A DNA stretch of 36,339 nt from Candidatus Limadaptatus stercoravium (GCA_018710835.1 DVJC01000006.1:1-36339); one strand, 5' to 3'; shown: positions 1,200 through 36,302, counted from the first letter of the stretch. Numbers and translations are program-made. Notes: generated from the letters alone by a model not told the origin.

Positions 1200-1206
1200 A
1201 ACGCCC

Positions 1207-2280
1207 TCACTTGTTTTCCGTTTCGAACTTCTTCATGAAGCCGATGAGCGCTTTCACGCCTTCGACGGGCATCGCGTTGTAGATGGACGCGCGCATGCCG
1301 CCGGCAAGACGGTGCCCCTTGAGGGACACGAGTCCCGCGCCTTCCGCTTCCTTGACGAACTTCGCGTCGAGCTCGGCGGAGGGGGTGACGAAGGGGACGT
1401 TCATGATCGACCTGTCTTCGGGATTGACCTTGTTGGCGTAGAAGGAGGAGTTGTCGATGAAGTCGTACAGCATCGCCGCCTTTTCGCGGTTGATCTTCTC
1501 CATGGCCGCCACGCCGCCCATCTTCTTGAGATAGCGCATGTTGAGCATCATGACGTAGATCGCCCAGCAGGGAGGGGTGTTGTAGAGGCTGTTGTTGGCC
1601 GCGTGCACGGAATATTTGAACATCGTGGGGCAGATCGCCATCTCGCCGCCGAGCATATCCTTGCGGACGATGACGAGAGTGACGCCCGCGGGGGCGAGGT
1701 TCTTCTGCGCACCGGCGTAGATGAGCGCGTACTTGTTCACGTCCGCGACTTCGCTCATGATGCAGGAGGACATATCGGACACGAGCGGCGCGCCGCAGTC
1801 GGGCACATAGTTCCACTTGGTGCCGAAGATGGTGTTGTTCTCGGTGATGTGGACGTAGTCGATGTCATCGCGGAAGTCCGCACGCGTGACTTTGGGTATG
1901 TAGGTGTAGCCCGCGTCTTCGGAGGACGCGACGAGGCGGATGTCGCCGTATTTCATCGCTTCCTTGTACGCCTTTTTGGAGAAGTTGCCCGTCACGACGT
2001 AATCCGCGCGTCCCTTCTTCAGCAGATTGAGAGGGACGGACTCGAACTGCGTCGACGCGCCGCCCTGGAGCAGCAGCACTTCGTATTCGTCGGAGATGTT
2101 CATCAGCTCGCGGACGAGGGCGATGCACTCGTTGTGTATGGGTTCGTACACCTTGCCGCGGTGGCTGAGCTCCATGACGCTCATTCCCGAACCTTCGTAA
2201 TCGGTGATCTGTCTGCCGGCCTCTTCGAGCACTTCCATGGGAAGCATGCTGGGACCTGCCGAAAAGTTGTAAACTCGCAT
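1207..2280 (-). CDS. serC: Phosphoserine aminotransferase
   Basis: YNFSAGPS, SVMELSHR, AGAQKN (PLP lysine), NTPP, GHR..GGMRASIYNA; RBS AGGAGG. Confidence 0.96.
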   Translation of the reverse strand: MRVYNFSAGPSMLPMEVLEEAGRQITDYEGSGMSVMELSHRGKVYEPIHNECIALVRELMNISDEYEVLLLQGGASTQFESVPLNLLKKGRADYVVTGNFSKKAYKEAMKYGDIRLVASSEDAGYTYIPKVTRADFRDDIDYVHITENNTIFGTKWNYVPDCGAPLVSDMSSCIMSEVADVNKYALIYAGAQKNLAPAGVTLVIVRKDMLGGEMAICPTMFKYSVHAANNSLYNTPPCWAIYVMMLNMRYLKKMGGVAAMEKINREKAAMLYDFIDNSSFYANKVNPEDRSIMNVPFVTPSAELDAKFVKEAEGAGLVSLKGHRLAGGMRASIYNAMPVEGVKALIGFMKKFETENK

Positions 2281-5231: not shown

Positions 5232-6515
5232 ATGGCAATCGTAAGATCTCTCGGAAAAGCCGCGCGCCGCGCGGGAATGCGCGCCGGCGACGACCTCGTT
5301 TCCCTCGGCGGAATACCCGTCCGGGACATTTTGGACTGCCTGTATTTCGACGGGGAAGAGAAGTTCGACGCCGAAATCGTACGGGGCGGCAAACGCCGTG
5401 TGCTGCATGTGAGAAAGAGTGCCGACGAGCCGCTCGGCATCGAACTCGAAGAGGAAATGCGCCCCATGCGCTGCCGCAACAAATGCGTGTTCTGTTTCGT
5501 CGATCAGCTGCCGAAAGGAATGCGCGAAAGCCTCTACGTCAAGGACGACGACTACCGATACAGTTTCATCAGCGGAAGCTACGTCACTCTCACCAATCTT
5601 TCCGACGACGACATAGACAGGATAATACGCCTCGGACTCAGTCCGATATACATATCCGTGCACGCTTTCACCGACGAAGTGCGGAGGCGGCTGGTGACCA
5701 ATCCCGGCACCGACACTCTCATCGCTAGGATGCGGAAACTGGGCGCCGCAGGTATAAAGATGCACACGCAGCTCGTCATTGTCCCCGGACTCAACGACGG
5801 GGAGGAGCTGACGAAGAGCATACGCGGACTGCACGGCGTGGAGGGCGTGGCGACCGTCGCCGTAGTACCCGTGGGGCTGACCGGACACCGCGAAGGGCTT
5901 GCGCCCCTCCGTCCCGCGACGCGGGAAGAATCCGCCGCGACGGTGAAACAGGTGGAAGAGCTGAATGCGGAATTCGGCGGTTTCTGCTGGTGCTCGGACG
6001 AGTATTACGTCAAGGCGGGCATGCCGCCGCGCGAATACCCGTATTACGGCGATTTCGAGCAGATAGAGAACGGAGTCGGGCTTTTCGCGGAGTTTTACGA
6101 CAACGTGGACTACGAACTCTCCTCCCTTCCCGACATGCGGCTGAACAAGAAGATCGCCCTCATCACGGGGGTGGACTTCGCGCCGTACCTCAGGGAGAAG
6201 ATGAAAGAAGTTGACGCCAAAATCGGCATTTCAAGCACCGTTTTCGGCATAATAAACCGTTTCTTCGGAGAAACGATCACAGTCGCCGGGCTTGTGACGG
6301 CAGGAGATATAACAGCACAGGCGGACTGCTCGGGCATGGACGCCGCCGTCATTCCCGACAATATGCTGAAGGAGTTCGGCGACGTATTTTTGGACAACGT
6401 AACGACGGACGAGGTGTCGCGCGCTCTCGGCGTGCCGCTCATCGTCGTGTCGCACAACGGCTCGGATCTGGTGAGCCGCATCGCGGACCGTTTCCGCGGG
6501 GAGGAGAGAAGATGA
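5232..6515 (+). CDS. DUF512 family PDZ + radical-SAM Fe-S protein
   Basis: CRNKCVFC (CxxxCxxC), DQLPKGMRESLYVKDDDYR, VVPVGLT, QIENGVG; usual position upstream of der. Confidence 0.9.
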   Translation: MAIVRSLGKAARRAGMRAGDDLVSLGGIPVRDILDCLYFDGEEKFDAEIVRGGKRRVLHVRKSADEPLGIELEEEMRPMRCRNKCVFCFVDQLPKGMRESLYVKDDDYRYSFISGSYVTLTNLSDDDIDRIIRLGLSPIYISVHAFTDEVRRRLVTNPGTDTLIARMRKLGAAGIKMHTQLVIVPGLNDGEELTKSIRGLHGVEGVATVAVVPVGLTGHREGLAPLRPATREESAATVKQVEELNAEFGGFCWCSDEYYVKAGMPPREYPYYGDFEQIENGVGLFAEFYDNVDYELSSLPDMRLNKKIALITGVDFAPYLREKMKEVDAKIGISSTVFGIINRFFGETITVAGLVTAGDITAQADCSGMDAAVIPDNMLKEFGDVFLDNVTTDEVSRALGVPLIVVSHNGSDLVSRIADRFRGEERR

Positions 6516-7822
6516 AGCCTCTTATTGCCATAGTGGGACGCCCCAATGTGGGCAAATCCACGCTTTTCAACCGCATAGCCGGAGGGCAGATCGCCATCGT
6601 CGAGGATACCCCCGGCGTGACGCGTGACAGGATATACGCCGACTGCGAGTGGTGCGGCCGCGCTTTCACGCTCATTGACACCGGCGGACTCGAACTCAAG
6701 AGCGAGGACGAGATGTGGATGCACATCCGCGCGCAGGTGGAGATAGCCGTCGAAGCGTCCGACGCCATCATTTACGTCGTGGACGGCAAGACAGGGCTCA
6801 CGCTCGACGACGAGGCGATCGCGGCGTATCTGCGCAAGGCGAAAGTCCCGGTGATACTTGCCGTCAACAAGATAGACAACAACGAACTGCATGAAGCGTA
6901 CGGCTTCTATTCGCTCGGTTTCGGGGAGCCTTACGCCGTTTCCGCCGCGCAGGGGAAGGGCATCGGCGAGCTTCTCGACGCGGTGACGGACGCCGTCCCC
7001 GCCGTCGCGCCCGAAGAGGACGAGGACGTGATAAAGATCGCCATAGTCGGCAAGCCGAATGCGGGCAAGAGTTCCATCGTCAACAGGCTGCTCGGCTACG
7101 AGCGCGTGATAGTCAGCGACGTCGCCGGCACGACGCGCGACGCGATAGATACGCCCATCACCGTGGGAGGGGACAAATACGTCCTTATCGACACCGCCGG
7201 CATACGCAGAAAAAAGAGCGTCGGCGACGGATTGGAGCGTTACAGCGTTCTGCGCAGTCTGCTCGCGGTGCGCCGCGCGGACGTCGCGGTCATCGTGCTG
7301 GACTCTGCCGAGGGAGTGACGGAGCAGGACGTCAAGATCGCGGGTTATGTGGACGCGCAGGGCAAACCCTCCGTCGTGGTAATGAACAAGTGGGACCTTG
7401 TGGCAAAGGATACGCATACGATAGAGAAGTACGAGAAAAAGTTGCATGAAGACCTTAAATTCATGGACTACTTCAAGTCCGTGTATGTGTCGGCAATGAC
7501 GGGAAAACGCGCGGACGCGATACTTCCCGCGTGCAGAAAGGTGCTCGCCAACAGCCGCAGGAGGATCGCTACGGGACTTCTCAACGAAGTGCTTGCGGAC
7601 GCTACGCGCATCAGCGAGCCTCCCTCCAAACTCGGCAGACGGCTCAAACTGCTGTACATCACGGAGGCTTCCGTCGCGCCGCCCACTTTCGTGCTCAAGG
7701 TCAACGATCCCGACCTCATGCACTTCAGCTACAAGCGGTATCTCGAAAATGCGCTCCGCCGGAGCTTCGACTTCTCGGGCACGCCCATACGCCTGCTGGT
7801 GCGCGGAGGAAAAGAGGAATAA
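6512..7822 (+). CDS. der: Ribosome biogenesis GTPase Der (EngA)
   Basis: Two G domains (GRPNVGKS/DTGG/NKID and GKPNAGKS/DTAG/NKWD) and C-terminal F.GTPIRL. Confidence 0.97.
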   Translation: MKPLIAIVGRPNVGKSTLFNRIAGGQIAIVEDTPGVTRDRIYADCEWCGRAFTLIDTGGLELKSEDEMWMHIRAQVEIAVEASDAIIYVVDGKTGLTLDDEAIAAYLRKAKVPVILAVNKIDNNELHEAYGFYSLGFGEPYAVSAAQGKGIGELLDAVTDAVPAVAPEEDEDVIKIAIVGKPNAGKSSIVNRLLGYERVIVSDVAGTTRDAIDTPITVGGDKYVLIDTAGIRRKKSVGDGLERYSVLRSLLAVRRADVAVIVLDSAEGVTEQDVKIAGYVDAQGKPSVVVMNKWDLVAKDTHTIEKYEKKLHEDLKFMDYFKSVYVSAMTGKRADAILPACRKVLANSRRRIATGLLNEVLADATRISEPPSKLGRRLKLLYITEASVAPPTFVLKVNDPDLMHFSYKRYLENALRRSFDFSGTPIRLLVRGGKEE

Positions 7823-7828
7823 AGCCGC

Positions 7829-7857
7829 TTGCGCTTCGGCGCAATGTGTGGTAGGAT
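7829..7857 (+). promoter_or_regulatory. Candidate promoter of the aminotransferase gene
   Basis: TTGCGC-17 nt-TAGGAT with extended TG. Confidence 0.4.
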
Positions 7858-7916
7858 AATTGAAAACGTCCGCGGCAGGACCGCGGCGCGCCGTTCGGAT
7901 CGGCGCGAGGAGGATT

Positions 7917-9194
7917 ATGGATTATAAGTCTTTTTCCGCAAAGGAACTCGAAAATCTGCTCCGCGACGAGCAGAAACGCTTCAAGAAGCTCGTAAAAGAG
8001 GGCAGAAACGTGGATATGACGCGCGGCCGTCCCTCAAAGGAACAGCTTGAGATCGCAATGCCCATGCTGAAAGCCGCGGGCACTTACAACTATTCGGCAG
8101 AAACGTCCGACGCCCGCAATTACGGCGATCTCGGCGGTACGAAAGCGTGCAAGGCGCTCTTTGCCGAGCTTTTCGGTGTGAAACCGGAGGAAGTATTCGT
8201 CGGCGACGGCAGCAGCCTCGATCTCATGTACACGCTTGTGCATTTCGCAAAGCAGTTCGGCGTGCTCGGCGCCGCGCCCTGGAACAGCCTGAAAAAGGTC
8301 AAGTTCATCTGTCCTGCGCCCGGCTACGACCGCCACTTCTCCATCTGCCAGCAGTTCGGCATCGAGATGATCACCGTCCGCATGAAAGAGGACGGCCCCG
8401 ATATGGACGTCATCGAGTCCCTCGTCAGAGAGGACGATTCCATCAAGGGCATCTGGTGCGTGCCCAAGTATTCCAACCCCACGGGCATCACGTTCTCGGA
8501 CAGCGTGGTTGAAAGACTCGCCACCATGAAGACGGCGGCAAGCGACTTCCGCATCTTCTGGGACAACGCATACATGGTGCACAGCCTCTACGACGAGGAC
8601 GACAAACTGAAAAACATCTTTGACGTCGCGCGCAAGGCGGGCACGATGAACAGGATCTATTCCTTCGCGTCCACGTCCAAGATCACGTTTGCGGGCAGCG
8701 GCATTTCCGCTATTGCGGCGTCCGAGGAAAACATCAAGGATATCATGGGCAAGATGTTCTTCAAGTGCATCAACGCCAACAAAGTAAATCAGGTCATGCA
8801 CGTCAATTTCCTGAAAAACGCCGACGGCGTCAGGGAAGTGATGAAGAAGCATGCCGCGATGCTGCGTCCCAAATTCGAGCTGTTCGATAAGAAGTTTACG
8901 GAAGCGTTCGACGGCGACGAGTTCGTCAAGTGGTCCAAGCCGCGCGGAGGTTACTTTATTTCCGTAGACGTCAAGTCCTGCGCGAAACGTATAGTCGAAC
9001 TCGCTGCGACCGCGGGCGTCAAATTCACCGCTGCAGGCGCAACCTTCCCCTACAAACTCGACGACATGGACAGCAACATCCGCGTTGCACCGTCAGTTCC
9101 TTCCCTCGAAGAGATGGAGTTCGCCATCGACGTCATGATCTCCGCCATACGCCAGGCGCGTATGGAGATCGTCCTTGCCAAAACCAAGTCCTGA
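7917..9194 (+). CDS. PLP-dependent class I/II aminotransferase (Rv3722c-like aspartate aminotransferase type)
   Basis: DMTRGRPS, PGYDRHF, VPKYSNPTG, WDNAY, STSKITFAG (PLP lysine), P.GGYF; start moved to ATG 7917 after RBS GAGGAGG. Confidence 0.85.
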   Translation: MDYKSFSAKELENLLRDEQKRFKKLVKEGRNVDMTRGRPSKEQLEIAMPMLKAAGTYNYSAETSDARNYGDLGGTKACKALFAELFGVKPEEVFVGDGSSLDLMYTLVHFAKQFGVLGAAPWNSLKKVKFICPAPGYDRHFSICQQFGIEMITVRMKEDGPDMDVIESLVREDDSIKGIWCVPKYSNPTGITFSDSVVERLATMKTAASDFRIFWDNAYMVHSLYDEDDKLKNIFDVARKAGTMNRIYSFASTSKITFAGSGISAIAASEENIKDIMGKMFFKCINANKVNQVMHVNFLKNADGVREVMKKHAAMLRPKFELFDKKFTEAFDGDEFVKWSKPRGGYFISVDVKSCAKRIVELAATAGVKFTAAGATFPYKLDDMDSNIRVAPSVPSLEEMEFAIDVMISAIRQARMEIVLAKTKS

Positions 9195-9443
9195 GCGGAC
9201 GGCTGACTGTGGTACCGAACGTTACATAAGTTATCGCAAAGTCCTGAGCGGACGGCTGACTGTGGTGCAGTGCATTACATAAGTTACCGCAAAGTCCTGT
9301 GCGTCCGGGTTCTGAGCGGACGGCTGACTACGGTACCGAACGTTAAATAAGTTATCGCAAAGTCCTGAGCGGACGGCTGACTGTGGCGCAGTGCATTGCA
9401 TAAGTTTCGGCAAAGTCCTGAGCGGGCGGCCGGCTATGCGGTA
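9188..9443. repeat. Tandem array of about 4.5 copies of a 53-bp unit (A-B-A-B pattern) with one 15-bp truncated copy
   Basis: Units start gtcctgagcggacgg-like at 9188, 9241, 9309, 9362, 9415; degenerate 15-bp copy at 9294-9308. Confidence 0.95.
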
Positions 9444-9481
9444 GAGAGTATAAAACGCACATTTAACAGCCGGCACACGCG

Positions 9482-9530
9482 TCGGACGGCCACCGACAAA
9501 GCAAAACCGCGGCATATGCCGCGGTTTTTT
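9482..9530. terminator. Palindromic bidirectional terminator, copy 1 of a dispersed 45-bp element
   Basis: Perfect 26-bp palindrome aaaaccgcggcatatgccgcggtttt (9503-9528) between convergent genes; 9482-9526 matches 29227-29271 at 44/45 nt. Confidence 0.85.
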
Positions 9531-9607
9531 GTGTAGTCGGTTATTGTTTTGCTGCTTTTAGCGCTGTATGCCGGAGCATACTTTCTTCTCTCCGCCGGAC
9601 GGCGAAG

Positions 9608-10561
9608 TCATGCCTCGGCGGGGAAGATGTCAGCGAAGGTGGTGTCCGCGGAGAGTATGGAATACTGCGCAGAGGTAGCTACATTACCTCTTATTCTTAT
9701 TCCGTCGGTGATGATCTCCGATAAGTCGAGAGTGATGAGTCCGGTGATTTCAAGTGTTTTGTTTTCAAAGAGCTTAAAGAGCTCCATCGGGAAGAATTCA
9801 ACGTTATAGGCGAGGAATTCCGCGTCTTCATAAGGCATGAACGCCGTGATGTCCTGCGAGGTGGTCATCGCGGCGAAGTTGCCGTCCGAAAAGGTCACGG
9901 AGCCGGTCACGTCGCCGAAGTCGATCCAGTCGTAGATCATGGGCATGATGTCGTAGCCCGCGTCATATGCGAGTATGGGAGCGACCTGCTGCAGTATCCA
10001 GTCCAGCGCGCTCTCGCCGGGGATGGTGTAATCTGACGCCGATCCGCCGATGAGTTCCGCGTCATAGAAGGTGTTCATGCCGAAGTCCAGCACGGGAATG
10101 GTGTCATGCAGGGACTGTTGCGTAAAAGTAACGTCTTCGGCAAGAGGATAGAGCCCGCCGAGAGCAACGGCATCCAACGTGAATACACCGTCCGCGCTTT
10201 TGTGTACGGAAAGATCGACGTCGAGTCCGTTTTCGAGCGCGCCGGCGAAAATTCCGCTTGCTATGGCGTCAAGCCCGTCCACCTTGACGGTGTAGTCCAT
10301 GCGGAACTCGTCACCCAGATACACACGTTTGCCCTCGAGGGTGATCTTTACGGGGACTGCTCCTTTACCGCTGCCGAGAGTGGCGTCGATGACGCCCGTA
10401 TCCGTGCTCATTTTGTATTCCGCGCCGTCCCATGCGGACTTCGCATTTGCATAGCTCGCGACGAAATCGTCTTTGTTGCACGCTGCGAGCGCAAGGGCGG
10501 AAACCAGAAGGCAGACGAGCAGTATAAGTGACACAATGATGGTTTTAGCAGTGCGTTTCAT
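9608..10561 (-). CDS. Acidic lipoprotein of unknown function
   Basis: Signal peptide with lipobox LAAC; RBS GGAGG; 14 bp downstream of the GH18 gene. Confidence 0.8.
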   Translation of the reverse strand: MKRTAKTIIVSLILLVCLLVSALALAACNKDDFVASYANAKSAWDGAEYKMSTDTGVIDATLGSGKGAVPVKITLEGKRVYLGDEFRMDYTVKVDGLDAIASGIFAGALENGLDVDLSVHKSADGVFTLDAVALGGLYPLAEDVTFTQQSLHDTIPVLDFGMNTFYDAELIGGSASDYTIPGESALDWILQQVAPILAYDAGYDIMPMIYDWIDFGDVTGSVTFSDGNFAAMTTSQDITAFMPYEDAEFLAYNVEFFPMELFKLFENKTLEITGLITLDLSEIITDGIRIRGNVATSAQYSILSADTTFADIFPAEA

Positions 10562-10575
10562 GTTCGAAAACCTCC

Positions 10576-12270
10576 TTATTCGCCGTAACCGACGATGCGT
10601 TCGGCCGCAGTGTCTCTAATGACGCGGAGCAGATTGAGATAGTTGTCGTCGTAATCCTTCGCTTCCCAGTCGCAGTCTGTGTCTTCGCGCCAAAGCATCA
10701 TGCCGGCAAAGCCCTGTTCGATGACGTAAGCAGTTTTGTCTGCGACCATTGCGCCGCCGTTGACCCAGACTTGTATAAATTGAATAGTGTAGGTGACGGA
10801 GCCGTCAAGGTTTGTGCCCGTGTAATACAGCCACTGCGAGTTGTCCCAGTAGGTATAGGGCTTTTTGTCATAGGTCGCCCATGCCTCTATGTCATATTCG
10901 TATTCGCTGCCGCTGTGCTCACCGTTCTCGCCGGGAATTTCCTTGTAGCCATAATTCGTCCACACGGTGTCCCAGCTGTTGGGCCTTCCGTAGACGGGGA
11001 GTCCGAGCACAAGTTGGGAAGGCTTGAAACCGATGTTGACGAAGTAACGCATGGAGGAGTATGCTCCGCTGCGGAATGAGGCGTGGTTGCCGTCCTTGAT
11101 GTCGAAGCGGTCGTACGCCATCATCTGCACGAAATCCACCGCGTCGATCTGTTCCTGCGTGAGGCGCACGTTGTCTGCAGAGAGAGCCAGGGAAATGTAC
11201 TTGTCCTCGCCGGAGGAGTCGATTGCCTCGCTGACGCGGGTGATGAGGTCGCCGTAATGTTTCCATTCGGTCACGCCGTTCGGGTACTCCCAGTCGAAGT
11301 CGATGCCGTCAACGCGGTCGTCGTCGGCAATAAGGGAAGTAATGTTTTCCATCAGCGTATCCATGTTGCCGGGAAGTCCGTGTGCGGACAGGTCGGACGG
11401 GAAGAGATCCATGCATATGTTCACGTTGCGGTCGCCCACGATGGACACGATCCTGTCGAGCAGCTGATTGTAGAAAGTCGGGTCTGACGTGCGGTTCTCG
11501 GGGGCGAAACCGTTCTCGGACGCGTAGACAAGCGAGCCGTCCTCTTCCCAGAAAACAAAGGATATGAGGATCATGTCCGTGATCACGCCGCGGTCGAGTT
11601 CCTCCGCCAGTGCTGCCGCTTCTTCGTCCGTCATATTGTAAAAGTCATCCACTCTGTAATAGTTGAATACACGGAAATCGTTCTCGTATTCTTTGGGGGC
11701 GATGTTGTATATTTCGACCTCCGCGATCGATATATCTTTCCCTTCATCGCAGCGTTCGAAATAAATGCGGAAAGTGGTCACTTCCACCGCGTCGAAAGTG
11801 CAGTAGCGGTAACGCTCGATCCTGTCCTGCTGACGATAGAAGAAATTCTCGAAATAGCCGTAGCCGTCTGTCGGATATTCCCCGTTCTCGTCGGGGGTGA
11901 CGAAGCTGAAACCGGAGATGTAGTTGCCGTTTTCGCGCAGGACTACGGTGTTGATCTCCGTAGGCGAGGGAAGTGTGATCTCGATATACTGTCCGGTGGT
12001 GCTTTCCGCCGTCCATGCCGTCGAGGTGTCGCCGTCCGCGACGTTCCCCGCGCTGTCCGCCGCGCTCGATGCCGTGATCTGCTGCGCGCTTGCCGCGAGG
12101 TTTTCGGCGGCGGTGGTGTCGAGATCGTCGGTGAACACGTTCCCGAAATCCTCGACGCCCATCGAGCCGACTGACGGAGGATCGTTGTTGCAGGCGGCGA
12201 AGAGAACGCCGCATACGACCGTAAGCACGAGCGCCGCGGCGATGATGACGGTAAATCTTCCTTTCTTCAT
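10576..12270 (-). CDS. Lipoprotein: discoidin/CBM32-like domain + GH18 glycoside hydrolase
   Basis: Lipobox FAAC; ADGDTSTAW...EVEIY discoidin-like pattern; intact DGIDFDWEYP (DxxDxDxE), MMAYD, LVLGLPVYGR, GMMLW; start moved to ATG 12270 after GGAG. Confidence 0.88.
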   Translation of the reverse strand: MKKGRFTVIIAAALVLTVVCGVLFAACNNDPPSVGSMGVEDFGNVFTDDLDTTAAENLAASAQQITASSAADSAGNVADGDTSTAWTAESTTGQYIEITLPSPTEINTVVLRENGNYISGFSFVTPDENGEYPTDGYGYFENFFYRQQDRIERYRYCTFDAVEVTTFRIYFERCDEGKDISIAEVEIYNIAPKEYENDFRVFNYYRVDDFYNMTDEEAAALAEELDRGVITDMILISFVFWEEDGSLVYASENGFAPENRTSDPTFYNQLLDRIVSIVGDRNVNICMDLFPSDLSAHGLPGNMDTLMENITSLIADDDRVDGIDFDWEYPNGVTEWKHYGDLITRVSEAIDSSGEDKYISLALSADNVRLTQEQIDAVDFVQMMAYDRFDIKDGNHASFRSGAYSSMRYFVNIGFKPSQLVLGLPVYGRPNSWDTVWTNYGYKEIPGENGEHSGSEYEYDIEAWATYDKKPYTYWDNSQWLYYTGTNLDGSVTYTIQFIQVWVNGGAMVADKTAYVIEQGFAGMMLWREDTDCDWEAKDYDDNYLNLLRVIRDTAAERIVGYGE

Positions 12271-28346: not shown

Positions 28347-29201
28347 ATGCAGATAATAGACGGAAAACTCGTTGCAAAACTTACTCGTGAGAACATCGCG
28401 CGGCAGGTGCAGGCTCTGCCGCAGGACAAACTCGGAAAGATAGGGCTTGCGGTCATACTCGTGGGCGACGATCCGGCGAGCAAGGTGTATGTGCGCAACA
28501 AGATCAACGGCTGCGCCGAAGTGGGTATCGCGTCCACCCTCGAAGCAATGTCCGCGGATTCGACCTTCGAGGAAGTGGCGGCGAAGATAGAGCAGTTCAA
28601 CGCCGACCCGGAGATCAGCGGCATACTCCTGCAGCTTCCCGTGCCGAAGCACCTCGACGAGGCGGCGCTCCTGCACCTCATCGATCCGTCAAAGGACGTG
28701 GACGGCTGCCATTACGTCCAGAAAGGCAAGCTGTGGACGGGCGAGCCGGAGCTTATCCCCTGCACGCCTTACGGTGTGATGAAACTGCTCGACCACTATT
28801 CCATTCCCCTCGAGGGGAAGAACGCCGTGGTGGTGGGACGCTCGAATCTTGTCGGCAAACCGCTTGCGCAGCTGCTGCTCGACCGCAATGCGACCGTCAC
28901 CGTCTGCCACAGCCGCACGAGGGACCTCGGCAGTATAACCTCGCGCGCGGACATCGTGTGCGTGGCGATAGGGAAGGCGAAGTTCCTCAAAGCCGATATG
29001 GTGAAAGAGGGAGCGGTGGTCATTGACGTCGGCATGGACCGCGACGAAAACGGCAAACTCTGCGGCGATGTGGACTTCGCCGAAGTCGCCCCCAAGTGCT
29101 CTTACATCACCCCCGTCCCCGGCGGAGTCGGACCGATGACAGTCACCATGCTCCTGCAAAACACAGTCACGGCATACAAACTCTCCCGCGGCATCGAGTA
29201 A
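28347..29201 (+). CDS. folD: Methylene-THF dehydrogenase/cyclohydrolase
   Basis: IIDGK, YVRNK, KDVDG, PCTP, GRSNLVGKP, ITPVPGGVGPMT. Confidence 0.97.
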   Translation: MQIIDGKLVAKLTRENIARQVQALPQDKLGKIGLAVILVGDDPASKVYVRNKINGCAEVGIASTLEAMSADSTFEEVAAKIEQFNADPEISGILLQLPVPKHLDEAALLHLIDPSKDVDGCHYVQKGKLWTGEPELIPCTPYGVMKLLDHYSIPLEGKNAVVVGRSNLVGKPLAQLLLDRNATVTVCHSRTRDLGSITSRADIVCVAIGKAKFLKADMVKEGAVVIDVGMDRDENGKLCGDVDFAEVAPKCSYITPVPGGVGPMTVTMLLQNTVTAYKLSRGIE

Positions 29202-29226
29202 AAACCCCACCACACAGAAACGGCAT

Positions 29227-29280
29227 TCGGACGGTCACCGACAAAGCAAAACCGCGGCATATGCCGCGGTTGTTTTATTT
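29227..29280. terminator. Palindromic bidirectional terminator, copy 2 of the dispersed 45-bp element
   Basis: 22-bp palindrome aaccgcggcatatgccgcggtt (29250-29271); 44/45 identical to 9482-9526. Confidence 0.85.
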
Positions 29281-29336
29281 ATCGAATAGCGGTTAGGTCG
29301 TGTCGGAGCAGGCGGTTTTTGCGGAATGCCAGGCGG

Positions 29337-30293
29337 TCAGTAGCCTTTTCGGCAGTCAACGATGTTGTCGGGGAGAGCTCCGTTGAGGTATCGCAAGACG
29401 TTGTTCAGCGTATCTTCTACATATCTTGCGTGTCCGTCGGCTACCTGCATTGCTTTGTGGGATGAGAGCAGAACGTTGTCAAGCGTCTGGAACGGGACGT
29501 CAAACGGAAGAAGAAGTTCGTCCGCAGATGCCGGCTTTTCGCGCCATGTATCTATGGCGGCTCCTCCCATGCCGCCGTTGGCGAGGGCTTCGAAGAGAGC
29601 CGCTTCGTCTATGCAGTTGCTGCGTCCCACATTGACGATGTATTTACCTTTGAGCAGTCCGAAAAGTTCTTTGCCGAACAAGTTGTCGGTGGACGGAGTT
29701 TTGGGCAGAGAAACGAAGAGTATGTCGCTTGCTTCACATAATTCACGCAAGGAATTCACAAGCAGGATGTCGTCGGGATATTCCTTTCCGCGATCCGTCG
29801 TATAGCATTTGATCCCGTTTGCGGCAAGCAGAGAATAGATTTCTCTGCCTATATGTCCGAACCCTGCCAGTCCTGCTTTCATCGAAAACAGGCTGCGCCA
29901 GTAAGGATTGTCCGTTGCCCAGTTGCCGAGGCGCATCTTACGGTCGAATTCCGCCGTTCGGCTGACAAGAGTGACCGCCAGGCTGAAAGCGTACTGAGCT
30001 ATACTGCGTGAATTGACATGTGAATTCGCAAGAATTATGCCGCGCTTTGCAAATTCCCGTACGGGAAAATCGTCCACACCGGTTTTGTAGGCAAACACCG
30101 CCTTGAGGTCATCGGCGTCTTTGAGTTTATCTGCCGACATTTTTTTCCCGATGAATATATCAGTGTCGCGGAGAGAGTAGCCGTCAAGTCCGACGACCGC
30201 CACTTCGGCAAAGCCGGAGAGCGCGGCGGCCATTTTTGCGAAAGACTCATCCATTGACGATATGCTCAGACAAATACGGTATTTTTTTGTCAC
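29337..30293 (-). CDS. D-isomer-specific 2-hydroxyacid dehydrogenase
   Basis: TGVD, GFGHIG, SLPKT, VNVGR, AAIDTW, LLSSH; GTG start overlaps the upstream stop (GTGA). Confidence 0.88.
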   Translation of the reverse strand: MTKKYRICLSISSMDESFAKMAAALSGFAEVAVVGLDGYSLRDTDIFIGKKMSADKLKDADDLKAVFAYKTGVDDFPVREFAKRGIILANSHVNSRSIAQYAFSLAVTLVSRTAEFDRKMRLGNWATDNPYWRSLFSMKAGLAGFGHIGREIYSLLAANGIKCYTTDRGKEYPDDILLVNSLRELCEASDILFVSLPKTPSTDNLFGKELFGLLKGKYIVNVGRSNCIDEAALFEALANGGMGGAAIDTWREKPASADELLLPFDVPFQTLDNVLLSSHKAMQVADGHARYVEDTLNNVLRYLNGALPDNIVDCRKGY

Positions 30294-31249
30294 TGAATGT
30301 CCTCCGTCTTGTTCATAAAACTTATTATATCATTTTCGCTCGCTTTAAGCACATCGCCTTTCACCTGATGTTTCAACGCAAATGCCGCCGCGGCGAAACG
30401 CAGGATGTCGATATCGTTCATTCCGCACAGCAGCGCATGCAGGAACGCCCCGTTGAATGCGTCGCCTCCGCCGATTTTTTCCGTTACCGGGAAAGAGAAA
30501 ACGGGCAGTTCGCTGCGCCTTTCGCCGCGATGCAGCATGGCTATTCCGACTGAGTGTAAATACGGTGAGACGACATTTCTGTCGCGCAGCACAAGGTATT
30601 TGCACGGATAGTCATCCAATGCGTTTTCTTCACCGGTTTGCAAGAACGCATCCAGATCCCGGCTGCTTGCGAGCAAAATATCCGCAATTTCGGCAGCGCG
30701 GCGGAGATGAGCGCGCGCGTTGTCTGCAGTCCACAATGCAGGACGGTAGTTGAAATCGAACGAAACCGTGATGTTTCTCTTTTTTGCTTCGTGCATAAGT
30801 CTGAACGCAAGATCGCGCGAAGAGGGAGAGAGAGCGAGAGATATTCCGCTGATATGGAAAAGGACGGCGTCGTCGAAGACTTTTTCGAAATCGAACGAGT
30901 CCTCCGTAAGAAGCGTGAATTGCGAGTGGCGGCGCGCATAGACCACGTTTGCGCCGCGGCTTGCGGAGCCTGATTCGGAAAAATACATTCCGATGGTGTC
31001 GCCGCCGGTCAGCACTCCCGATACGTCTATACCGAGTCCGGTCAGATGATCGAGTGCGGCTTCTCCCAAAGGTCCTTCGGGCAGAGCGGAGAGGAAAGAA
31101 GTCCTGTGCCCCAATGCCGAAAGGCATGCGAGCACGTTTGATTCCGTGCCGCCGTAGCACGCGTTGAATGAGCGGCTGTCCCGTATCGTGCCGTCAGCCG
31201 CGGAAAGCCGCAGGAGCAATTCGCCGTAAGCAACGATTTTGCCGTTCAT
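30290..31249 (-). CDS. PfkB-family sugar(-acid) kinase, KdgK-like
   Basis: GELLLRLS, GGTESNV, HISGI, SFDFNYRPALW, IGGGDAF; ATGA overlap with the upstream gene. Confidence 0.88.
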   Translation of the reverse strand: MNGKIVAYGELLLRLSAADGTIRDSRSFNACYGGTESNVLACLSALGHRTSFLSALPEGPLGEAALDHLTGLGIDVSGVLTGGDTIGMYFSESGSASRGANVVYARRHSQFTLLTEDSFDFEKVFDDAVLFHISGISLALSPSSRDLAFRLMHEAKKRNITVSFDFNYRPALWTADNARAHLRRAAEIADILLASSRDLDAFLQTGEENALDDYPCKYLVLRDRNVVSPYLHSVGIAMLHRGERRSELPVFSFPVTEKIGGGDAFNGAFLHALLCGMNDIDILRFAAAAFALKHQVKGDVLKASENDIISFMNKTEDIQ

Positions 31250-32787
31250 ACAGTAGCCTCCGTCGCTTCGGACATTTTGAGTTCCTTTTCAATCCGTTCA
31301 CTGCACAGGTCGGCATAATAAAGGCATGCCAGCAGAGCTTCGCCGCATTCTTTTTCGAAAGGCATACCCAACGCGCGCCTCACTCTGTATGCCGTGCCGT
31401 CGAAGTGCTGTCTCAGGCGCGTTACGCGGGGAGCGAACCTGCGTCGTACATAAATGATCCTGCGCGGATCGAGTTTCAGTTCGTATCCGAAGTTTATAGC
31501 GATATCGTCCAGTGGCACGAGATAAAGATCGCTGTCAAGTTTTGCGCCAAAGATCGCAGGCAAGTCGTCCTTTTCGGCTTTCTTTGCCGCGTCAGCCGCT
31601 TTTTCCTGCAGTTTGTCTTTAAGTTCCGCGGCGGTCATGTCGGCGATCACATAGAAATACATGTTCGGCTTGCCGCCCTCTATAAGGTCGCGCGCGAGTC
31701 CCAAAAAATTGTTCTCTACGGAAAAAGGCTTCAGGCAGCTTGCTTCGATGCCGTAGTTTTTGGAGAGCGTATCCAGTATGATTTCCTGCAGTGCGGCGGC
31801 GGTCCCGCTTGCTCCGGGAGTTTTGCATGAAGAAAAAGCCTTTTCTTTGAGAGCGAGCGATATCGGCTGCGCAAATTTATCCTTCCACGTGGTTTTTCTT
31901 TTGCCGCGCTTTTCTATTAGTACATATCCGTCCGTTGTGAATACCAGTCCGTTTATACCCAGTTGGTTGCCGAGTCTGGATTCCGGCAGAGGAGAGACTT
32001 TGTCTTTGAATTCGTAAATGTCGCGTATTGTGATGTTGCCGTCGAGTTTGTAATCCATACAGCGGTTGGTGACCAGCATATAAAAGTATTGCGACCGCTG
32101 CGTTTTGAGCGTAAGACTTTTTCCGTCGGATTCGACGTCCTGCAGTCTGACAGTGACGGTATTGCGTATGGATGAACCGCCGTGAGCTTTGAGAAGCTCC
32201 GTTGCATGTTCGCGGATGAAGGAGGGGAGTTCGGACATTTCTTTCGAATCGGCAAAGACCATACTTGTGTCGCCGTTTACGTTTGCATACACATTCAGCC
32301 CGGAGAGAAAGAGTCTGCCGTCCATGTATTCGTTGATGTCATTTTCGCGCCGCGCATATTCTTCCGAGTAAGTGTCGGCGACCATATTCCGGGGCCTCTT
32401 GCGATCATGAGGCACTCGTTTCAGCTGCATGAATATGCCGTCGGGCGAAAACACGTTGCCGTTTGTTTCCTTGGTCGGATCCGGAACGGTATGCTTATAA
32501 TATTTTGATATTATTTTATGATGGTCGTCTTCCAGTTTCAGCGACTCTTCCATCGTGTGCTTTATTTTCAATGCGATTTTTGCCACAATGAGGGAGAAAG
32601 CCGCGGCAAGGAAGATCGACAGCATATCTGTCCCGGTAATAAACTCCAGGATTTTGTTTTTGGCGTTTTCTCCGGAAGCGAACGCGCCGCCTAGTGCAAG
32701 CACCGCAAGAGCGAAAAGTATGAGTGCGATCAGCTGCACCCAAAAGTTTTTGAAGATTTTTTCGCAGATCTTAAAGAACTTTTTCAT
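31246..32787 (-). CDS. Two-TM protein with NUDT22-like Nudix-fold domain and degenerate Nudix box
   Basis: Two N-terminal hydrophobic helices; VRL..LTL..SQYF..LVTN, LGINGLVFTTDGYVLIEKR, FLGLARDLIEGGKP.MYF segments; ATG 32787 preferred over GTG 32796 by RBS spacing. Confidence 0.6.
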   Translation of the reverse strand: MKKFFKICEKIFKNFWVQLIALILFALAVLALGGAFASGENAKNKILEFITGTDMLSIFLAAAFSLIVAKIALKIKHTMEESLKLEDDHHKIISKYYKHTVPDPTKETNGNVFSPDGIFMQLKRVPHDRKRPRNMVADTYSEEYARRENDINEYMDGRLFLSGLNVYANVNGDTSMVFADSKEMSELPSFIREHATELLKAHGGSSIRNTVTVRLQDVESDGKSLTLKTQRSQYFYMLVTNRCMDYKLDGNITIRDIYEFKDKVSPLPESRLGNQLGINGLVFTTDGYVLIEKRGKRKTTWKDKFAQPISLALKEKAFSSCKTPGASGTAAALQEIILDTLSKNYGIEASCLKPFSVENNFLGLARDLIEGGKPNMYFYVIADMTAAELKDKLQEKAADAAKKAEKDDLPAIFGAKLDSDLYLVPLDDIAINFGYELKLDPRRIIYVRRRFAPRVTRLRQHFDGTAYRVRRALGMPFEKECGEALLACLYYADLCSERIEKELKMSEATEATV

Positions 32788-32818
32788 TTTCCCCACCTGT
32801 AGAAGATATTACTCAAAT

Positions 32819-32848
32819 AATATATCACAAAATATCGCATGCGGTCAA
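32819..32848 (-). promoter_or_regulatory. Candidate promoter of the three-gene operon
   Basis: TTGACC-18 nt-TATATT with TG extension. Confidence 0.5.
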
Positions 32849-32902
32849 CAGCGGCGGACTTCGGCGGCTATGCGCGGCGGATCCGCTTCGGATGGCGGAT
32901 TG

Positions 32903-32931
32903 TCATATTCGGCGGAAGGGGGGCATATGTT
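32903..32931 (+). promoter_or_regulatory. Sigma-E (mother-cell) promoter of spoIVA
   Basis: TCATATT-14 nt-CATATGTT fits the sigma-E consensus; spoIVA is a known sigma-E regulon gene. Confidence 0.75.
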
Positions 32932-32956
32932 TCAGTAAACCGAAACGGAGGAGTTT

Positions 32957-34435
32957 ATGGACAAATTCGACCTTTATCGAGACATTGCCACACGCACGGG
33001 AGGGGACGTTTACGTCGGCGTCGTCGGACCGGTCAGGACGGGCAAATCCACCATCATCAAGCAGTTTATGGAGAAGCTGGTGGTCGGCGGCATCGAAAAC
33101 AAAGACGTGCGCGCACGCGCCGTCGACGAGATACCGCAGTCCGCCGACGGAAAAACCATCATGACGACTCAGCCCAAGTTCGTGCCGGCGGATGCGGTGA
33201 GGGTGGTTTTTCAGGACAATCTTGCCGTCAACATGAGGCTCATCGACTGCGTGGGCTACATGGTGAGCGGAGCTCTCGGCGGCGAGGAGGACGGCAGAGA
33301 ACGCATGGTGCGCACTCCGTGGTCCGACGAAGAGATGCCCTTTTCCGAGGCGGCGGCGCTCGGCACGGACAAAGTCATCCGTGAGCACAGCACGGTTGCG
33401 CTCGCCGTCACCACGGACGGCTCGTTCACGGACATCCCGCGCGAGGCGTACGAACCTGCCGAGGAGCGCGTCATCGAGGAACTGAAGCGTACAGGGAAGC
33501 CTTTTGCCATAGTGCTCAACACCGCGGATCCGGCGTCCGAGCAGGCGTACGCGCTTAAATGCGCGTTGGAAGAAAAGTACGGCGTGTCCGTATCTCTCGT
33601 CAATGCGCTGAACATGAGCGAGAGCGACATATCCGGTATAATGGAAAACATATTGCTCGAATTCGGGGTGAGGCTCATCGACTTCGATCTGCCCCGCTGG
33701 GTGCAGGCGCTTGCTCCCGATGACGACGTGGTGAAGGAGATCGTGTCCGCCGTGCGCGAGATGGGCGAGAATGTGTCGAAGATGAAAGATTACACCCTGG
33801 TGGACGAGTATTTCGCGGACAAGGAGTTCTGGAAAACGCCGGACAAGGTGGAGCTTGACGCCGGCAAGGGCAGGGTGTATGTCGCCGTTGCGCCGAAGGA
33901 CGACGTGTTCTTCAAAGTGGCGAGCCGCGAATGCGGTCTGGAACTTGCTGACGACTTCGCCTTGCTTTCCCACCTCAAACAGCTCGCCCGTGCGCGCCGA
34001 AGGACGGAAAAGCTCATCGACGCGATCGACCAGGTGGAAGCCACGGGCTACGGCATCGTGCTCCCCACCATGGAGGAGATGGTGCTCGAAGAGCCGGAGA
34101 TCATACGTCAGGGACAGCAGTACGGCGTGAAACTCAAAGCGAGCGCGCCTTCGCTGCACATCATGAAAGTGGATGTGGAAACGGAAGTGCGTCCCATCGT
34201 GGGCAGCGAGCAGCAGAGCTCCGAACTCGTGGACGCGATGCTGGGCGATTTCGAGAACGACAAGCAGGCTATATGGGACACCAACATCTTCGGGCGCTCG
34301 CTCTCATCGCTGGTCGCGGACGGCATCAACAACAAGCTGATGAGCGTGCCCGTCGACGCGGAGCAAAAGCTGCGCAAGACTCTCGGCCGCATCGTCAACG
34401 AGGGCAAGGGCGGAGTGATCTGCATACTTCTGTGA
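32957..34435 (+). CDS. spoIVA: Stage IV sporulation protein A
   Basis: DIATRTGGDVYVGVVGPVRTGKST, DCVGY, TTDGS, TGYGIV, IWDTNIFG, C-terminal GGVICILL. Confidence 0.97.
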   Translation: MDKFDLYRDIATRTGGDVYVGVVGPVRTGKSTIIKQFMEKLVVGGIENKDVRARAVDEIPQSADGKTIMTTQPKFVPADAVRVVFQDNLAVNMRLIDCVGYMVSGALGGEEDGRERMVRTPWSDEEMPFSEAAALGTDKVIREHSTVALAVTTDGSFTDIPREAYEPAEERVIEELKRTGKPFAIVLNTADPASEQAYALKCALEEKYGVSVSLVNALNMSESDISGIMENILLEFGVRLIDFDLPRWVQALAPDDDVVKEIVSAVREMGENVSKMKDYTLVDEYFADKEFWKTPDKVELDAGKGRVYVAVAPKDDVFFKVASRECGLELADDFALLSHLKQLARARRRTEKLIDAIDQVEATGYGIVLPTMEEMVLEEPEIIRQGQQYGVKLKASAPSLHIMKVDVETEVRPIVGSEQQSSELVDAMLGDFENDKQAIWDTNIFGRSLSSLVADGINNKLMSVPVDAEQKLRKTLGRIVNEGKGGVICILL

Positions 34436-34670: not shown

Positions 34671-36020
34671 TCAGTTCTTGAAGCTGTGTATGGGGGCGGG
34701 GATCCTGCCGCCGCGCGCTATGAACGCGTCCGCGTTTTCCTTGCCCACGGGCATGATGGGAGCGCGTCCGAGCAGACCGCCGAACTCCACTTCGCCTTCC
34801 TCTTTGCCCGCGACGGGGATGACGCGCACCGCCGTGGTCTTGTTGTTGATGACGCCGATCGCCGCTTCGTCCGCTATGATGGCGGACACCGTCGCCGCGC
34901 TCGTGCTGCCGGGGATGGCGATCATGTCCAGACCCACGCTGCACACCGAGGTCATTGCCTCCAGTTTGTCCAGTGAGAGCGCGCCGCTTCTCACCGCTTC
35001 GATCATGCCTATGTCCTCGCTGACGGGGATGAATGCGCCGGAAAGTCCGCCGACGTGCGAGCTTGCCATTGTGCCGCCCTTTTTCACGGCGTCGTTGAGC
35101 ATGGCAAGGCATGCGGTAGTGCCGTGCGCGCCGACGGAGGAGAGCCCCATCTCTTCGAGCACCTCTCCCACGCTGTCGTTGCGTATAGGGGTGGGGGCGA
35201 GGGAGAGATCGACTATGCCGAACTCCGCGCCGAGCGCTTTTGCCGCTTCACGGCCTATCAGTTCGCCCATTCTGGTGATCTTGAAAGAGGTGTTCTTTAT
35301 GGTTTCGGACAGCACGTCGCAGCTCTCTCCGCGAATGTTTTCCAACGCCGCTTTCACCACACCGGGACCGGACACTCCCACGTTCACCACGCAGTCGCCC
35401 TCGCTCACGCCGTTGAACGAGCCCGCCATGAAGGGGTTGTCCTCCACCGCGTTTGCGAACACTACCAGCTTGGCGCATCCTATACCGTCGCGGTCGGCGG
35501 TGAGCTCCGCCGTACGTTTCACCACCTCGCCCATGAGCTTCACCGCGTCCATGTTGATGCCCGCGCGGGTGGAGCCGACGTTCACGCTCGCGCACACGCG
35601 GTCGGTGGCGGCGAGCACTTCGGGGATGGTGAGGATGAACTCTCTTTCCTCTTTGGTCATGGACTTTTGCACCAGGGCGGTGTAGCCCCCGATGAAGTCC
35701 ACGTCCACCGTCTTTGCCGCTTCGTCCATGGCGAGCGCGATCTTGCGGTATCCGCCGCTCGCCGCGCCGATAAGGCTTACCGGACTCACCGACAGACGTT
35801 TGTTGACGATGGGGATGCCGTATTTGGACTGTATCTCTTCCACCACCTCTTTCAGTCTGCCGGCACGGGAGAGCAGTTTGCGCTTCACGTTTTCGGCGGT
35901 CCTGTCCGCGTCGTCGGAGATGCAGTCGAAAAGACTCAGGTGCAGCGTGACGGTGCGGATGTCGAGGTGCTGATCCTTGATCATGGATATTGTTTGTATG
36001 ATTTCCTGTTGGTTGAGCAT
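34671..36020 (-). CDS. UPF0210/DUF711 (PFL-like fold) protein
   Basis: [69 protein letters not shown]. Confidence 0.92.
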
Positions 36021-36032
36021 AGTCCTCTCCGG

Positions 36033-36302
36033 TCAGATCCTGTGCATGGAGTTGAAGATGTCCTCGTGCTGTACGCGTATCTCGACGCCGAGCTCCGCGC
36101 CCACGGCGGCGAGAGCTTCGTTCACTGCGCCGACCGCCAGCCCCTCTTTCAGGGTGATGAGCATGATCATGGTGAAATAAGACCCCTGCATTACGGTCTG
36201 GGAGATGTCCTCGACGTTGCAGCCGAGCTCGTAAAGTCTTGTGGTGACTTTGGCAATTATACCTGTGCGGTCCTTGCCGATGACAGAAACTATGGCTTTC
36301 AT
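36033..36302 (-). CDS. UPF0237 ACT-domain protein
   Basis: MKAIVSVIGKDRTGII, DISQT, FTMIM, HEDIFNSMHRI; usual partner of UPF0210. Confidence 0.92.
   Translation of the reverse strand: MKAIVSVIGKDRTGIIAKVTTRLYELGCNVEDISQTVMQGSYFTMIMLITLKEGLAVGAVNEALAAVGAELGVEIRVQHEDIFNSMHRI

Follow-up and report, generated by a model that had tools for sequence, protein, structure and literature searches.

A Nudix-fold membrane protein encoded with a PfkB kinase and an atypical 2-hydroxyacid dehydrogenase in gut bacteria

Kinases of the PfkB family and D-2-hydroxyacid reductases work on one keto sugar acid in the KguK/KguD route of 2-ketogluconate use, which is accompanied by a transporter and an epimerase. 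The catalytic residues of D-2-hydroxyacid dehydrogenases are Arg, Glu and His. Nudix proteins are recognized by the box GX5EX7REUXEEXGU, and effectors with two transmembrane (2-TM) helices occur in the CBASS, Pycsar and type II Thoeris systems. The locus that concerns us here recalls each of these. It lies in a stretch of 36,339 nucleotides from Candidatus Limadaptatus stercoravium (GCA_018710835.1, DVJC01000006.1:1-36339; hereafter the window, meaning the whole stretch analysed), where three consecutive genes encode a membrane protein that we name X, a PfkB-family kinase and a D-isomer 2-hydroxyacid dehydrogenase. This trio is certainly one functional unit. Many gut bacteria have it, and it appears not to have been described: among the papers listed on Nudix proteins with PfkB, on transmembrane effectors, on abortive infection and on phage defence, subscription journals lying outside this coverage, none was seen to deal with such a module. 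As an explanation we tentatively favour, at somewhat less than an even chance, a membrane-tethered module for a sugar acid, with X as its non-hydrolytic binding or anchoring subunit. We favour it because of gene fusions, because the genes behave as residents of their genomes, and because a defence context is lacking.

Three genes kept together

Three minus-strand open reading frames (ORFs) of the window form one operon, in the order X, kinase, dehydrogenase. Gene X, coding for a membrane-anchored, NUDT22-like pseudo-Nudix protein of 513 residues, occupies 31246..32787. Its frame is open from a GTG at 32796 (31246-32796, 516 residues), and the ATG at 32787 is likely the better start, because that GTG falls within the ribosome-binding site GGTGGGG and because homologues begin with MKK and a 99%-identical database protein has 513 residues. 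The kinase gene, of the KdgK type (30290..31249, 319 residues; PF00294, E-value 4.4e-28), and the gene of the atypical dehydrogenase, which starts with GTG (29337..30293, 318 residues; PF02826, E-value 1.4e-34), follow on the same strand. At GTATGAAC the stop of X and the start of the kinase gene share ATGA (31249-31246), and at CAGTGACA the stop of the kinase gene and the start of the dehydrogenase gene share GTGA (30293-30290); at both junctions GGAGG stands 7-8 nucleotides 5' of the overlapping start. An original prediction, made from the window alone, had read the three genes, their coordinates and the overlaps in the same way. It had also remarked that the operon contains no transporter, aldolase or regulator, with which library scans of the ORFs agree.

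The same order recurs widely. A scan of 185,579 species genomes, carried out with two peptide patterns only, returned 65 loci, a lower bound. Among the 58 that have at least 2100 bp after X, 54 keep X, kinase and dehydrogenase in this order, in genomes of 24-63% guanine plus cytosine (G+C) and in several bacterial orders. Of seven shorter loci, five have the kinase gene starting right after X, one consists of decayed fragments and one ends at X. Natural fusions tighten the association: X and PfkB form a single ORF in L033 (identical to protein P0122), L040, L058 and P0135, and PfkB and dehydrogenase do so in L044, L047, L048, L049 and L062. Although assembly errors in metagenome-assembled genomes might account for some of them, these fusions vary in length and lineage. 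As fusions usually join proteins that act together, they argue for coupled action. The original prediction had made co-conservation of the trio one of its tests, which the 54 loci and both kinds of fusion bear out. One of the fused loci, L049, is titled Alistipes onderdonkii and groups tightly in the X tree with the Firmicute-type bins L044, L047 and L048, with the same neighbours; its contig is probably mis-binned.

Beyond the trio, little is shared between loci. When their 1675 ORFs were clustered, the commonest cluster apart from the trio and its antisense shadows, an ABC ATPase, was present in 8 of the 65 loci. The genes nearest the trio, 271 ORFs of 140 residues or more at a distance of up to 3 kb, fall into 219 clusters, and the Pfam scan, which covered 112 of the cluster representatives, shows no recurring aldolase, isomerase, dehydratase or other sugar-catabolic partner among them. 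The flanks are mostly housekeeping genes, such as those for PNPase, TyrRS, RecA, GlnA, Lon, ClpP and arginine-pathway enzymes. With such flanks and no further conserved neighbour, the homologues do not sit in sugar-catabolic loci, one of the situations that would have refuted the original prediction. This bears on another account of the operon, ordinary cytosolic catabolism of the 2-keto-3-deoxygluconate (KDG) type, in which X would be a membrane protein without any relation to the pathway that happens to be co-transcribed. The KdgK-like kinase and the known pairing of such a kinase with a 2-ketoacid reductase (KguK/KguD) are what one would then expect. The X-PfkB single ORFs found in four distinct proteins, the order and linkage kept across bacterial orders, and the lack of a recurring aldolase, isomerase or dehydratase are not, and because of the fusions coincidental co-transcription is close to refuted; we consider this account very improbable.

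In the window, the operon is inserted antisense between folD (PF02882/PF00763) and spoIVA (PF09547), as initially described, both flanking genes being on the opposite strand. The plus strand carries all the flanking genes, which are spoIVA at one end of the trio and folD, guaB and a purine operon (pur genes) at the other. The claim of a single promoter stands only in part. A promoter-like site, TTGACC-18 nt-TG-TATATT (32819..32848, minus strand), with 10 of 12 hexamer matches and an extended -10 TG, sits in the 160-bp divergent spacer that X and spoIVA have in common. A promoter for X at 32848-32819 is no more than plausible, because the whole scan did no better than chance, with 4 sites against 3.7 expected from shuffling. 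A strong, bidirectional intrinsic-terminator-like hairpin (29250..29271; a 9-bp stem with 7 G-C pairs, and T-runs on both strands), is located between the dehydrogenase gene and the convergent folD. An Rfam scan of 28800-33400 gave 0 matches at E<=0.1, hence no riboswitch, and repeats flanking the operon are short, chance-level pairs only, hence no attachment (att)-like sites.

Of two roles that this neighbourhood or the carriers might suggest, one was rejected and the other weakened. The rejected one is a link to sporulation through spoIVA: spoIVA neighbours the trio in just two cases, the window and L022, and the trio is also found in Anaeroplasmataceae and Erysipelotrichaceae records. If Anaeroplasmataceae are wall-less, their trio weakens the case for a role in a cell-wall polymer. 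Elsewhere in the window, a second D-2-hydroxyacid dehydrogenase (365 residues) adjoins a class V aminotransferase at 102-2280 (minus strand); the two resemble a serA/serC pair and are unrelated to the trio. At 34671-36302 (minus strand), downstream of spoIVA and on the strand opposite to it, a DUF711 protein (5.8e-181) is accompanied by a small ACT-domain protein.

Protein X and its sister family

Protein X has no family in Pfam (even at E<=10), NCBIfam or PADLOC. By sequence it has no credible match in the PDB either, the best one, an alignment of 72 residues with an intron endonuclease (0.0064), being taken as chance. The AlphaFold2 model of X, built with 19 homologues, has a mean predicted local distance difference test score (pLDDT) of 81.4 and a predicted TM-score (pTM) of 0.80, and its six best Foldseek matches in the PDB are all human NUDT22 chains (E-values 5.7e-13 to 1.9e-11). 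The alignments cover 253-294 columns against chains of 282-301 residues, with a target TM-score of 0.58-0.62 and an identity of 14-16%. Dozens of generic Nudix proteins come next (1e-3 to 1e-2), and the weak matches in the viral library BFVD are nearly all Nudix proteins. The model thus has the Nudix alpha/beta/alpha fold and the two-domain architecture of NUDT22, an N-terminal domain followed by a Nudix domain. According to Foldseek and the profile alignment, this body, with a C-terminal extension from about residue 416, corresponds to 31249..32460 (minus strand). An atlas search returned unnamed clusters only, the nearest named one carrying NUDIX on 15% of its members (score 0.88-0.89), which we treat as a lead only. 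For the natural X-PfkB fusion P0122, a model from a mixed alignment of 50 rows has a mean pLDDT of 85.2 and a pTM of 0.60, against 0.80 for X alone.

Ahead of this body, a two-helix membrane hairpin is encoded at 32563..32742 (minus strand; residues ~16-37 and 54-75 of the 513-residue form). Its Kyte-Doolittle means over 19 residues reach 2.72 and 2.31, and both segments are also helices in the AlphaFold2 model. The original claim that X is a 2-TM protein holds: 17 of 19 homologues show two separate hydrophobic peaks, and the N-terminus is basic, its first 14 residues having 5 K/R for 1 D/E. The hairpin is accordingly predicted to be of the N-in kind, which would place both the N-terminus and the large C-terminal domain in the cytoplasm.

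The helix that should carry the Nudix box is degenerate, ending in ...DTLSKNYGI (31750..31812, minus strand; model helix 329-348). The box positions are T343, K346, N347 and G349 (516-residue numbering), so that the consensus with its metal-binding glutamates is absent, and the Pfam NUDIX model PF00293 does not match X, even at E<=10. In an alignment of 13 trio-clade and 82 sister sequences, from which, together with the end of the helix, the register was deduced, T343 and N347 are each found in 13 of 13 trio sequences; at the same places the sister family has E in 63, D in 59 and E in 66 of the 82. Judging from these aligned sequences, X of the trio clade has lost the metal-binding acids of the box, and the name pseudo-Nudix, given to X before any structural comparison, suits both the NUDT22 fold match and the replacement of these acids by invariant T and N. 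Around 70 residues of X, mostly polar or basic, are invariant across 19 sequences that are 38-61% identical. Loss of the box alone is no proof of inactivity, because NUDT22, which is reported to lack a conventional Nudix box (PMC5688067), is described as a hydrolase of uridine diphosphate (UDP)-glucose and UDP-galactose (PMC12847042, citing Carter 2018).

When 1.84 billion representatives were searched with a profile of X, the matches, as clusters at 50% identity, numbered 924 for E<=1e-3, 627 for E<=1e-10 and 373 for E<=1e-30. The matches include a sister family of ~400-450 residues with the same 2-TM hairpin (E-values ~1e-52 to 1e-41). These proteins match profile positions ~170-420 only and are devoid of the C-terminal extension. 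X and the sister family have in common the core motifs AH..S...N..RL, TNR..DY, N.LG.NG, KR and RD..EGGKP, and the sister proteins retain E-I-x-D-E-L at the end of the Nudix helix, a recognizable REUXEE core. Pfam at E<=10 gave nothing credible for the sister proteins or for their partner. This partner is illustrated in Acetoanaerobium (L066, 6554-8633), where the sister gene overlaps by 11 nt the following ORF. That ORF, of 265 residues and no known family, is homologous to a domain fused at the C-terminus of the sister proteins P0247 (E-value 4e-37) and P0258. Being found adjacent or fused, it makes a Rosetta-stone partner proper to the sister family. Another sister protein, P0177 (710 residues), has a Gfo/Idh/MocA NAD-binding oxidoreductase domain (2e-18) N-terminal to the hairpin, and this is a second pairing of the membrane Nudix-like core with a sugar-type dehydrogenase. 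A sister fusion to a HAD-like domain is weak (0.0022, under the cut-off). The superfamily looks modular, a 2-TM Nudix-like core being combined with variable enzymes.

With respect to the sister family, X of the trio clade has gained invariant H92 H93, C246, E295, Q310, C484 and E486, the HH motif standing directly after the second transmembrane helix, at the membrane surface. Such residues would befit a neo-functionalized enzyme, in which newly fixed His, Cys, Glu and Asp re-tool the Nudix fold as has happened in isopentenyl-diphosphate isomerase. X would then perform the first or the last step on a membrane-proximal, nucleotide- or lipid-linked sugar acid, and the kinase and the dehydrogenase would perform adjoining steps. 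This comes close to the membrane-anchored salvage of nucleotide sugars that had been proposed from the outset as one of two readings. The hydrolytic activity of the box-less NUDT22 makes it conceivable, chains of isopentenyl-diphosphate isomerase are among the weaker fold matches of the model (~3e-3 to 1e-2), and fusions to enzymes of consecutive steps are typical of pathways; the sister fusions to Gfo/Idh/MocA and, weakly, HAD-like domains go in the same direction. We nevertheless find this enzyme unlikely: X has no link at the sequence level to any enzyme family, Cys246 is Ala in 83% of the sister sequences, a membrane hairpin is hard to explain for an enzyme of soluble metabolites, and assigning catalytic residues needs coordinates or an assay. 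A likeness of the TNRCMDY motif to the 'TNxxC' of the isomerase was rejected, the spacing and the domain being different and the Cys being Ala in most sister sequences.

Two enzymes proposed to act on a sugar acid

The kinase belongs to PF00294 and has its di-Gly and GxGD catalytic motifs. Across 27 sequences G33 G34, Y89, Y104, R106, D165, N167, R169 and G260 G262 D263 are invariant, positions that presumably serve, as in KdgK, the binding of KDG and the transfer of the phosphoryl group. Its PDB matches are 4gm6 (3.4e-50), 2afb (a KDG kinase; 5.8e-48) and 1v19 (2.4e-27), and its best NCBIfam models are of the types of kinases for KDG or its galactonate counterpart (KDGal), all of them under curated cut-offs. 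The dehydrogenase matches PF02826 and PF00389, and its homologues in public databases carry only the name 'hypothetical protein'. Its GxGxxG motif (G144 G146 G149), R224 and H279 are invariant. Of the Arg-Glu-His catalytic set, Arg and His are kept and the canonical Glu is K253 in 27 of 27 trio dehydrogenases, a register in which the Glu before Pro of Escherichia coli phosphoglycerate dehydrogenase (PGDH; ...TEP) and of 2d0i (...KEP) aligns with K253. The KguK/KguD logic advanced in the original prediction therefore applies loosely: a PfkB kinase does go with a D-2-hydroxyacid dehydrogenase, but the kinase is KdgK-like and the dehydrogenase has an atypical Glu-to-Lys change.

Put together, the three products would form one physically coupled, self-contained module that works on a sugar acid on the cytoplasmic side of the membrane. 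The N-terminal hairpin of X would anchor it, and its NUDT22-fold domain would bind a ligand in the cytoplasm without hydrolysing it. We take X to be non-hydrolytic, rather than a pyrophosphatase, because the metal-binding acids of the Nudix box are lost. The PfkB protein, as a KdgK-type kinase, most likely phosphorylates a sugar acid resembling a 2-keto-3-deoxy-aldonate, and the dehydrogenase would use NAD(H) to convert a 2-keto acid into the D-2-hydroxy acid or back, its unusual Arg-His-Lys site possibly leaving room for one more negative charge, for instance that of a phosphate. We thus infer that the substrate class is a sugar acid, that X binds rather than cleaves, and that the three proteins act on one metabolite, in a role that would be physiological rather than anti-phage.

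Defence context, descent and described systems

An anti-phage or metabolite-signalling role was the other reading put forward from the outset, and it called for enrichment of the trio near defence genes. None is apparent. X, the kinase and the dehydrogenase match 0 families of PADLOC v2.0 at E<=0.1, in a version dated 2023 that includes the CBASS, Pycsar and Thoeris effectors and is without Kongming, and no match for X or for the sister protein P0168 is found in 50,697 phage records. Among the 219 neighbour representatives, 20 match PADLOC at E<=1e-8, and 3 were judged specific: a GmrSD-like protein (L011), a type II methylase (L038) and a CARF-PDDEXK protein (L029). The other 17 are partial matches to ABC, AAA, helix-turn-helix, methylase or helicase domains. 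When cluster members are included, specific defence neighbours are found in at most 6 of 65 loci, a raw count without matched random-gene control, and the trio does not reside in defence islands. In L029, L032 and L039 (Faecousia/Oscillospiraceae) the CARF-PDDEXK (Csx1-like) protein is encoded immediately beside the trio (PADLOC 2.7e-26 for L029), and in L029 a TraG/VirD4-type coupling protein is encoded two genes beyond it.

The sister family is another matter. Four annotated records give three independent contexts for it. A 13.5-kb Arthrobacter plasmid has the sister gene next to those of an integrase and a type IIG restriction-methylase (PADLOC 1.2e-204). An E. eligens megaplasmid has a truncated copy, with AbiD (5.3e-37) 3 kb away. 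In Acetoanaerobium, a CapH/CapP-like pair and a Schlafen-AlbA_2 protein are encoded in the vicinity of the sister gene. The signalling or anti-phage reading is thus left divided, deprived of a defence context for the trio itself and sustained in part by a sister family whose surroundings include restriction or Abi-type genes in all three contexts.

What can be built on this is a doubtful alternative, in which X is a ligand-gated membrane effector that oligomerizes or opens when its pseudo-Nudix domain binds a small molecule. The ligand, which might be a phosphorylated sugar acid, would be produced or consumed by the kinase and the dehydrogenase, and infection or metabolic collapse would trip X. 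The trio clade would have arisen, as an offshoot under regulation, from a family of Abi-like membrane Nudix hydrolases. The architecture, an N-terminal 2-TM hairpin joined to a cytoplasmic ligand-binding fold without catalytic acids, is real, and the main support is the sister family, built in the same way, with its E/D/E kept and its defence-gene company; the patchy distribution (at least 65 loci among 185,579 species genomes) and the missing catabolic partners can be added. With the same small probability one may picture a metabolite-gated membrane module: a pseudo-Nudix sensor-effector, derived from an active, defence-neighbouring membrane Nudix family, would read a phosphorylated sugar acid whose level the KdgK-type kinase and the Lys-variant dehydrogenase set, and lost homeostasis, as in phage infection, would lead to a membrane event, a sequence of steps we judge improbable as well. 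Against an effector stand, besides the PADLOC and phage nulls and the few specific defence neighbours, a kinase and a dehydrogenase without recognizable infection-sensing component, the unobvious design of a toxic effector fused to a constitutive kinase, and a sister-family sample of just three contexts.

The descent of the genes also argues against it. In 46 loci, the median difference in G+C between the trio and its flanks is +0.001, with 23 trios lower and 23 higher, and the X tree has large clades that largely follow taxonomy, with some mixing. Taken together, G+C match and tree look more like those of a resident operon than of a shuffled defence island.

To be sure, a sugar-acid module is not without difficulties, and the following weigh against it. 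Beside the 54 regular loci there are exceptions: two Lachnospiraceae loci have X followed by the dehydrogenase without kinase, one has X alone and one a truncated X. The kinase falls well below the NCBIfam cut-offs (186.3 bits for 440 in NF041332, 115.8 for 400 in NF040938, 41.9 for 400 in NF052444), the dehydrogenase does likewise (103 versus 404 bits), and with Lys in the place of Glu its chemistry as a dehydrogenase could be altered or lost. The lack of transporter, aldolase and regulator with the trio is odd for a catabolic route, the gained residues H92 H93, C246, E295, C484 and E486 would equally fit a new catalytic activity, and the sister genes are beside defence-like genes each time. 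Finally, the window departs from the rule of residence. There the G+C at third codon positions (GC3) is 0.58-0.61 for the trio and 0.78-0.80 for the flanks, so that this copy looks horizontally acquired, as an effector might be. L059 has its trio (7004-10628) at the same place beside folD, and that copy matches its own flanks in G+C. A comparison of the window with L059 gives 83.5% DNA identity for the flanks, whose proteins (purL, guaB, folD) are 85-96% identical; for the trio the figures are only 65-68% in DNA and 51-69% in protein. This suggests that the trio of the window is either a foreign allele that replaced another at the same site or the product of unusually fast divergence; the latter keeps its place because both X copies belong to one 4-member clade (support 100/100).

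The two Lachnospiraceae loci without kinase, L057 (X at 5839-7221) and L064 (X at 7001-8383), where the dehydrogenase gene directly follows X, also resemble each other further upstream: genes on that strand encode a small canonical NUDIX protein, a pair of ABC-2 transporter proteins, a 4-alpha-glucanotransferase and a MiaB-like radical SAM protein.

Whichever explanation prevails, a large unnamed family comes into view, whose scanned members have no Pfam match and whose public names are 'hypothetical protein' or, for one fusion, 'sugar kinase'. The carriers are common, mostly uncultured gut Clostridia and Bacilli, in which a new sugar-acid route or a membrane switch would be of general interest. 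A role in defence, if true, would add a sugar-acid phosphate signalling chemistry not seen in known systems. The presence or absence of an acidic box divides the family cleanly into two clades, of which the box-less one is tied to two sugar-acid enzymes by operon order and fusions; this offers a ready case of a hydrolase fold turning into a binding or scaffolding subunit.

Compared with described systems, the trio is close to several and identical to none. The 2-TM effectors of CBASS, Pycsar and type II Thoeris have, like X, an N-terminal transmembrane hairpin and a cytoplasmic, enzyme-derived domain, which binds, or in X would bind, a small molecule; the trio differs in having no PADLOC match, no cyclase or TIR partner and no defence-island context. 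Its logic would be that of KguK/KguD, where one keto sugar acid is the substrate of both a PfkB kinase and a D-2-hydroxyacid reductase, but it has no conserved neighbour beyond X, and so no kgu transporter or epimerase, its kinase is KdgK-like and X is an obligatory partner. The trio kinases have the GG, GxGD, Y..Y.R and DxNYRxxLW motifs in common with KdgK (2afb, 1v19) and the PfkB protein 4gm6, but they stay under every curated cut-off, are never beside an aldolase and are sometimes fused to X or to the dehydrogenase. The dehydrogenase has GxGxxG, Arg and His in common with PGDH, glyoxylate/hydroxypyruvate reductases and 2-ketogluconate reductase; unlike them it has Lys for the Glu of the His-Glu pair, and it reaches no equivalog cut-off. 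In contrast with X, the sister family keeps the acidic box, is without C-terminal extension and has other partners, the 265-residue domain and Gfo/Idh/MocA. The only strong structural neighbour of X is human NUDT22 (PDB 5lou, 5lor, 5lf9, 5r50), both of whose domains are covered and which, like X, is reported to do without a conventional box (PMC5688067). To this common body X adds a 2-TM anchor and a C-terminal extension, with T, K and N at the box positions. The family turns out to be a branch of the Nudix fold anchored in the membrane, a human protein being the closest of its relatives with a solved structure.

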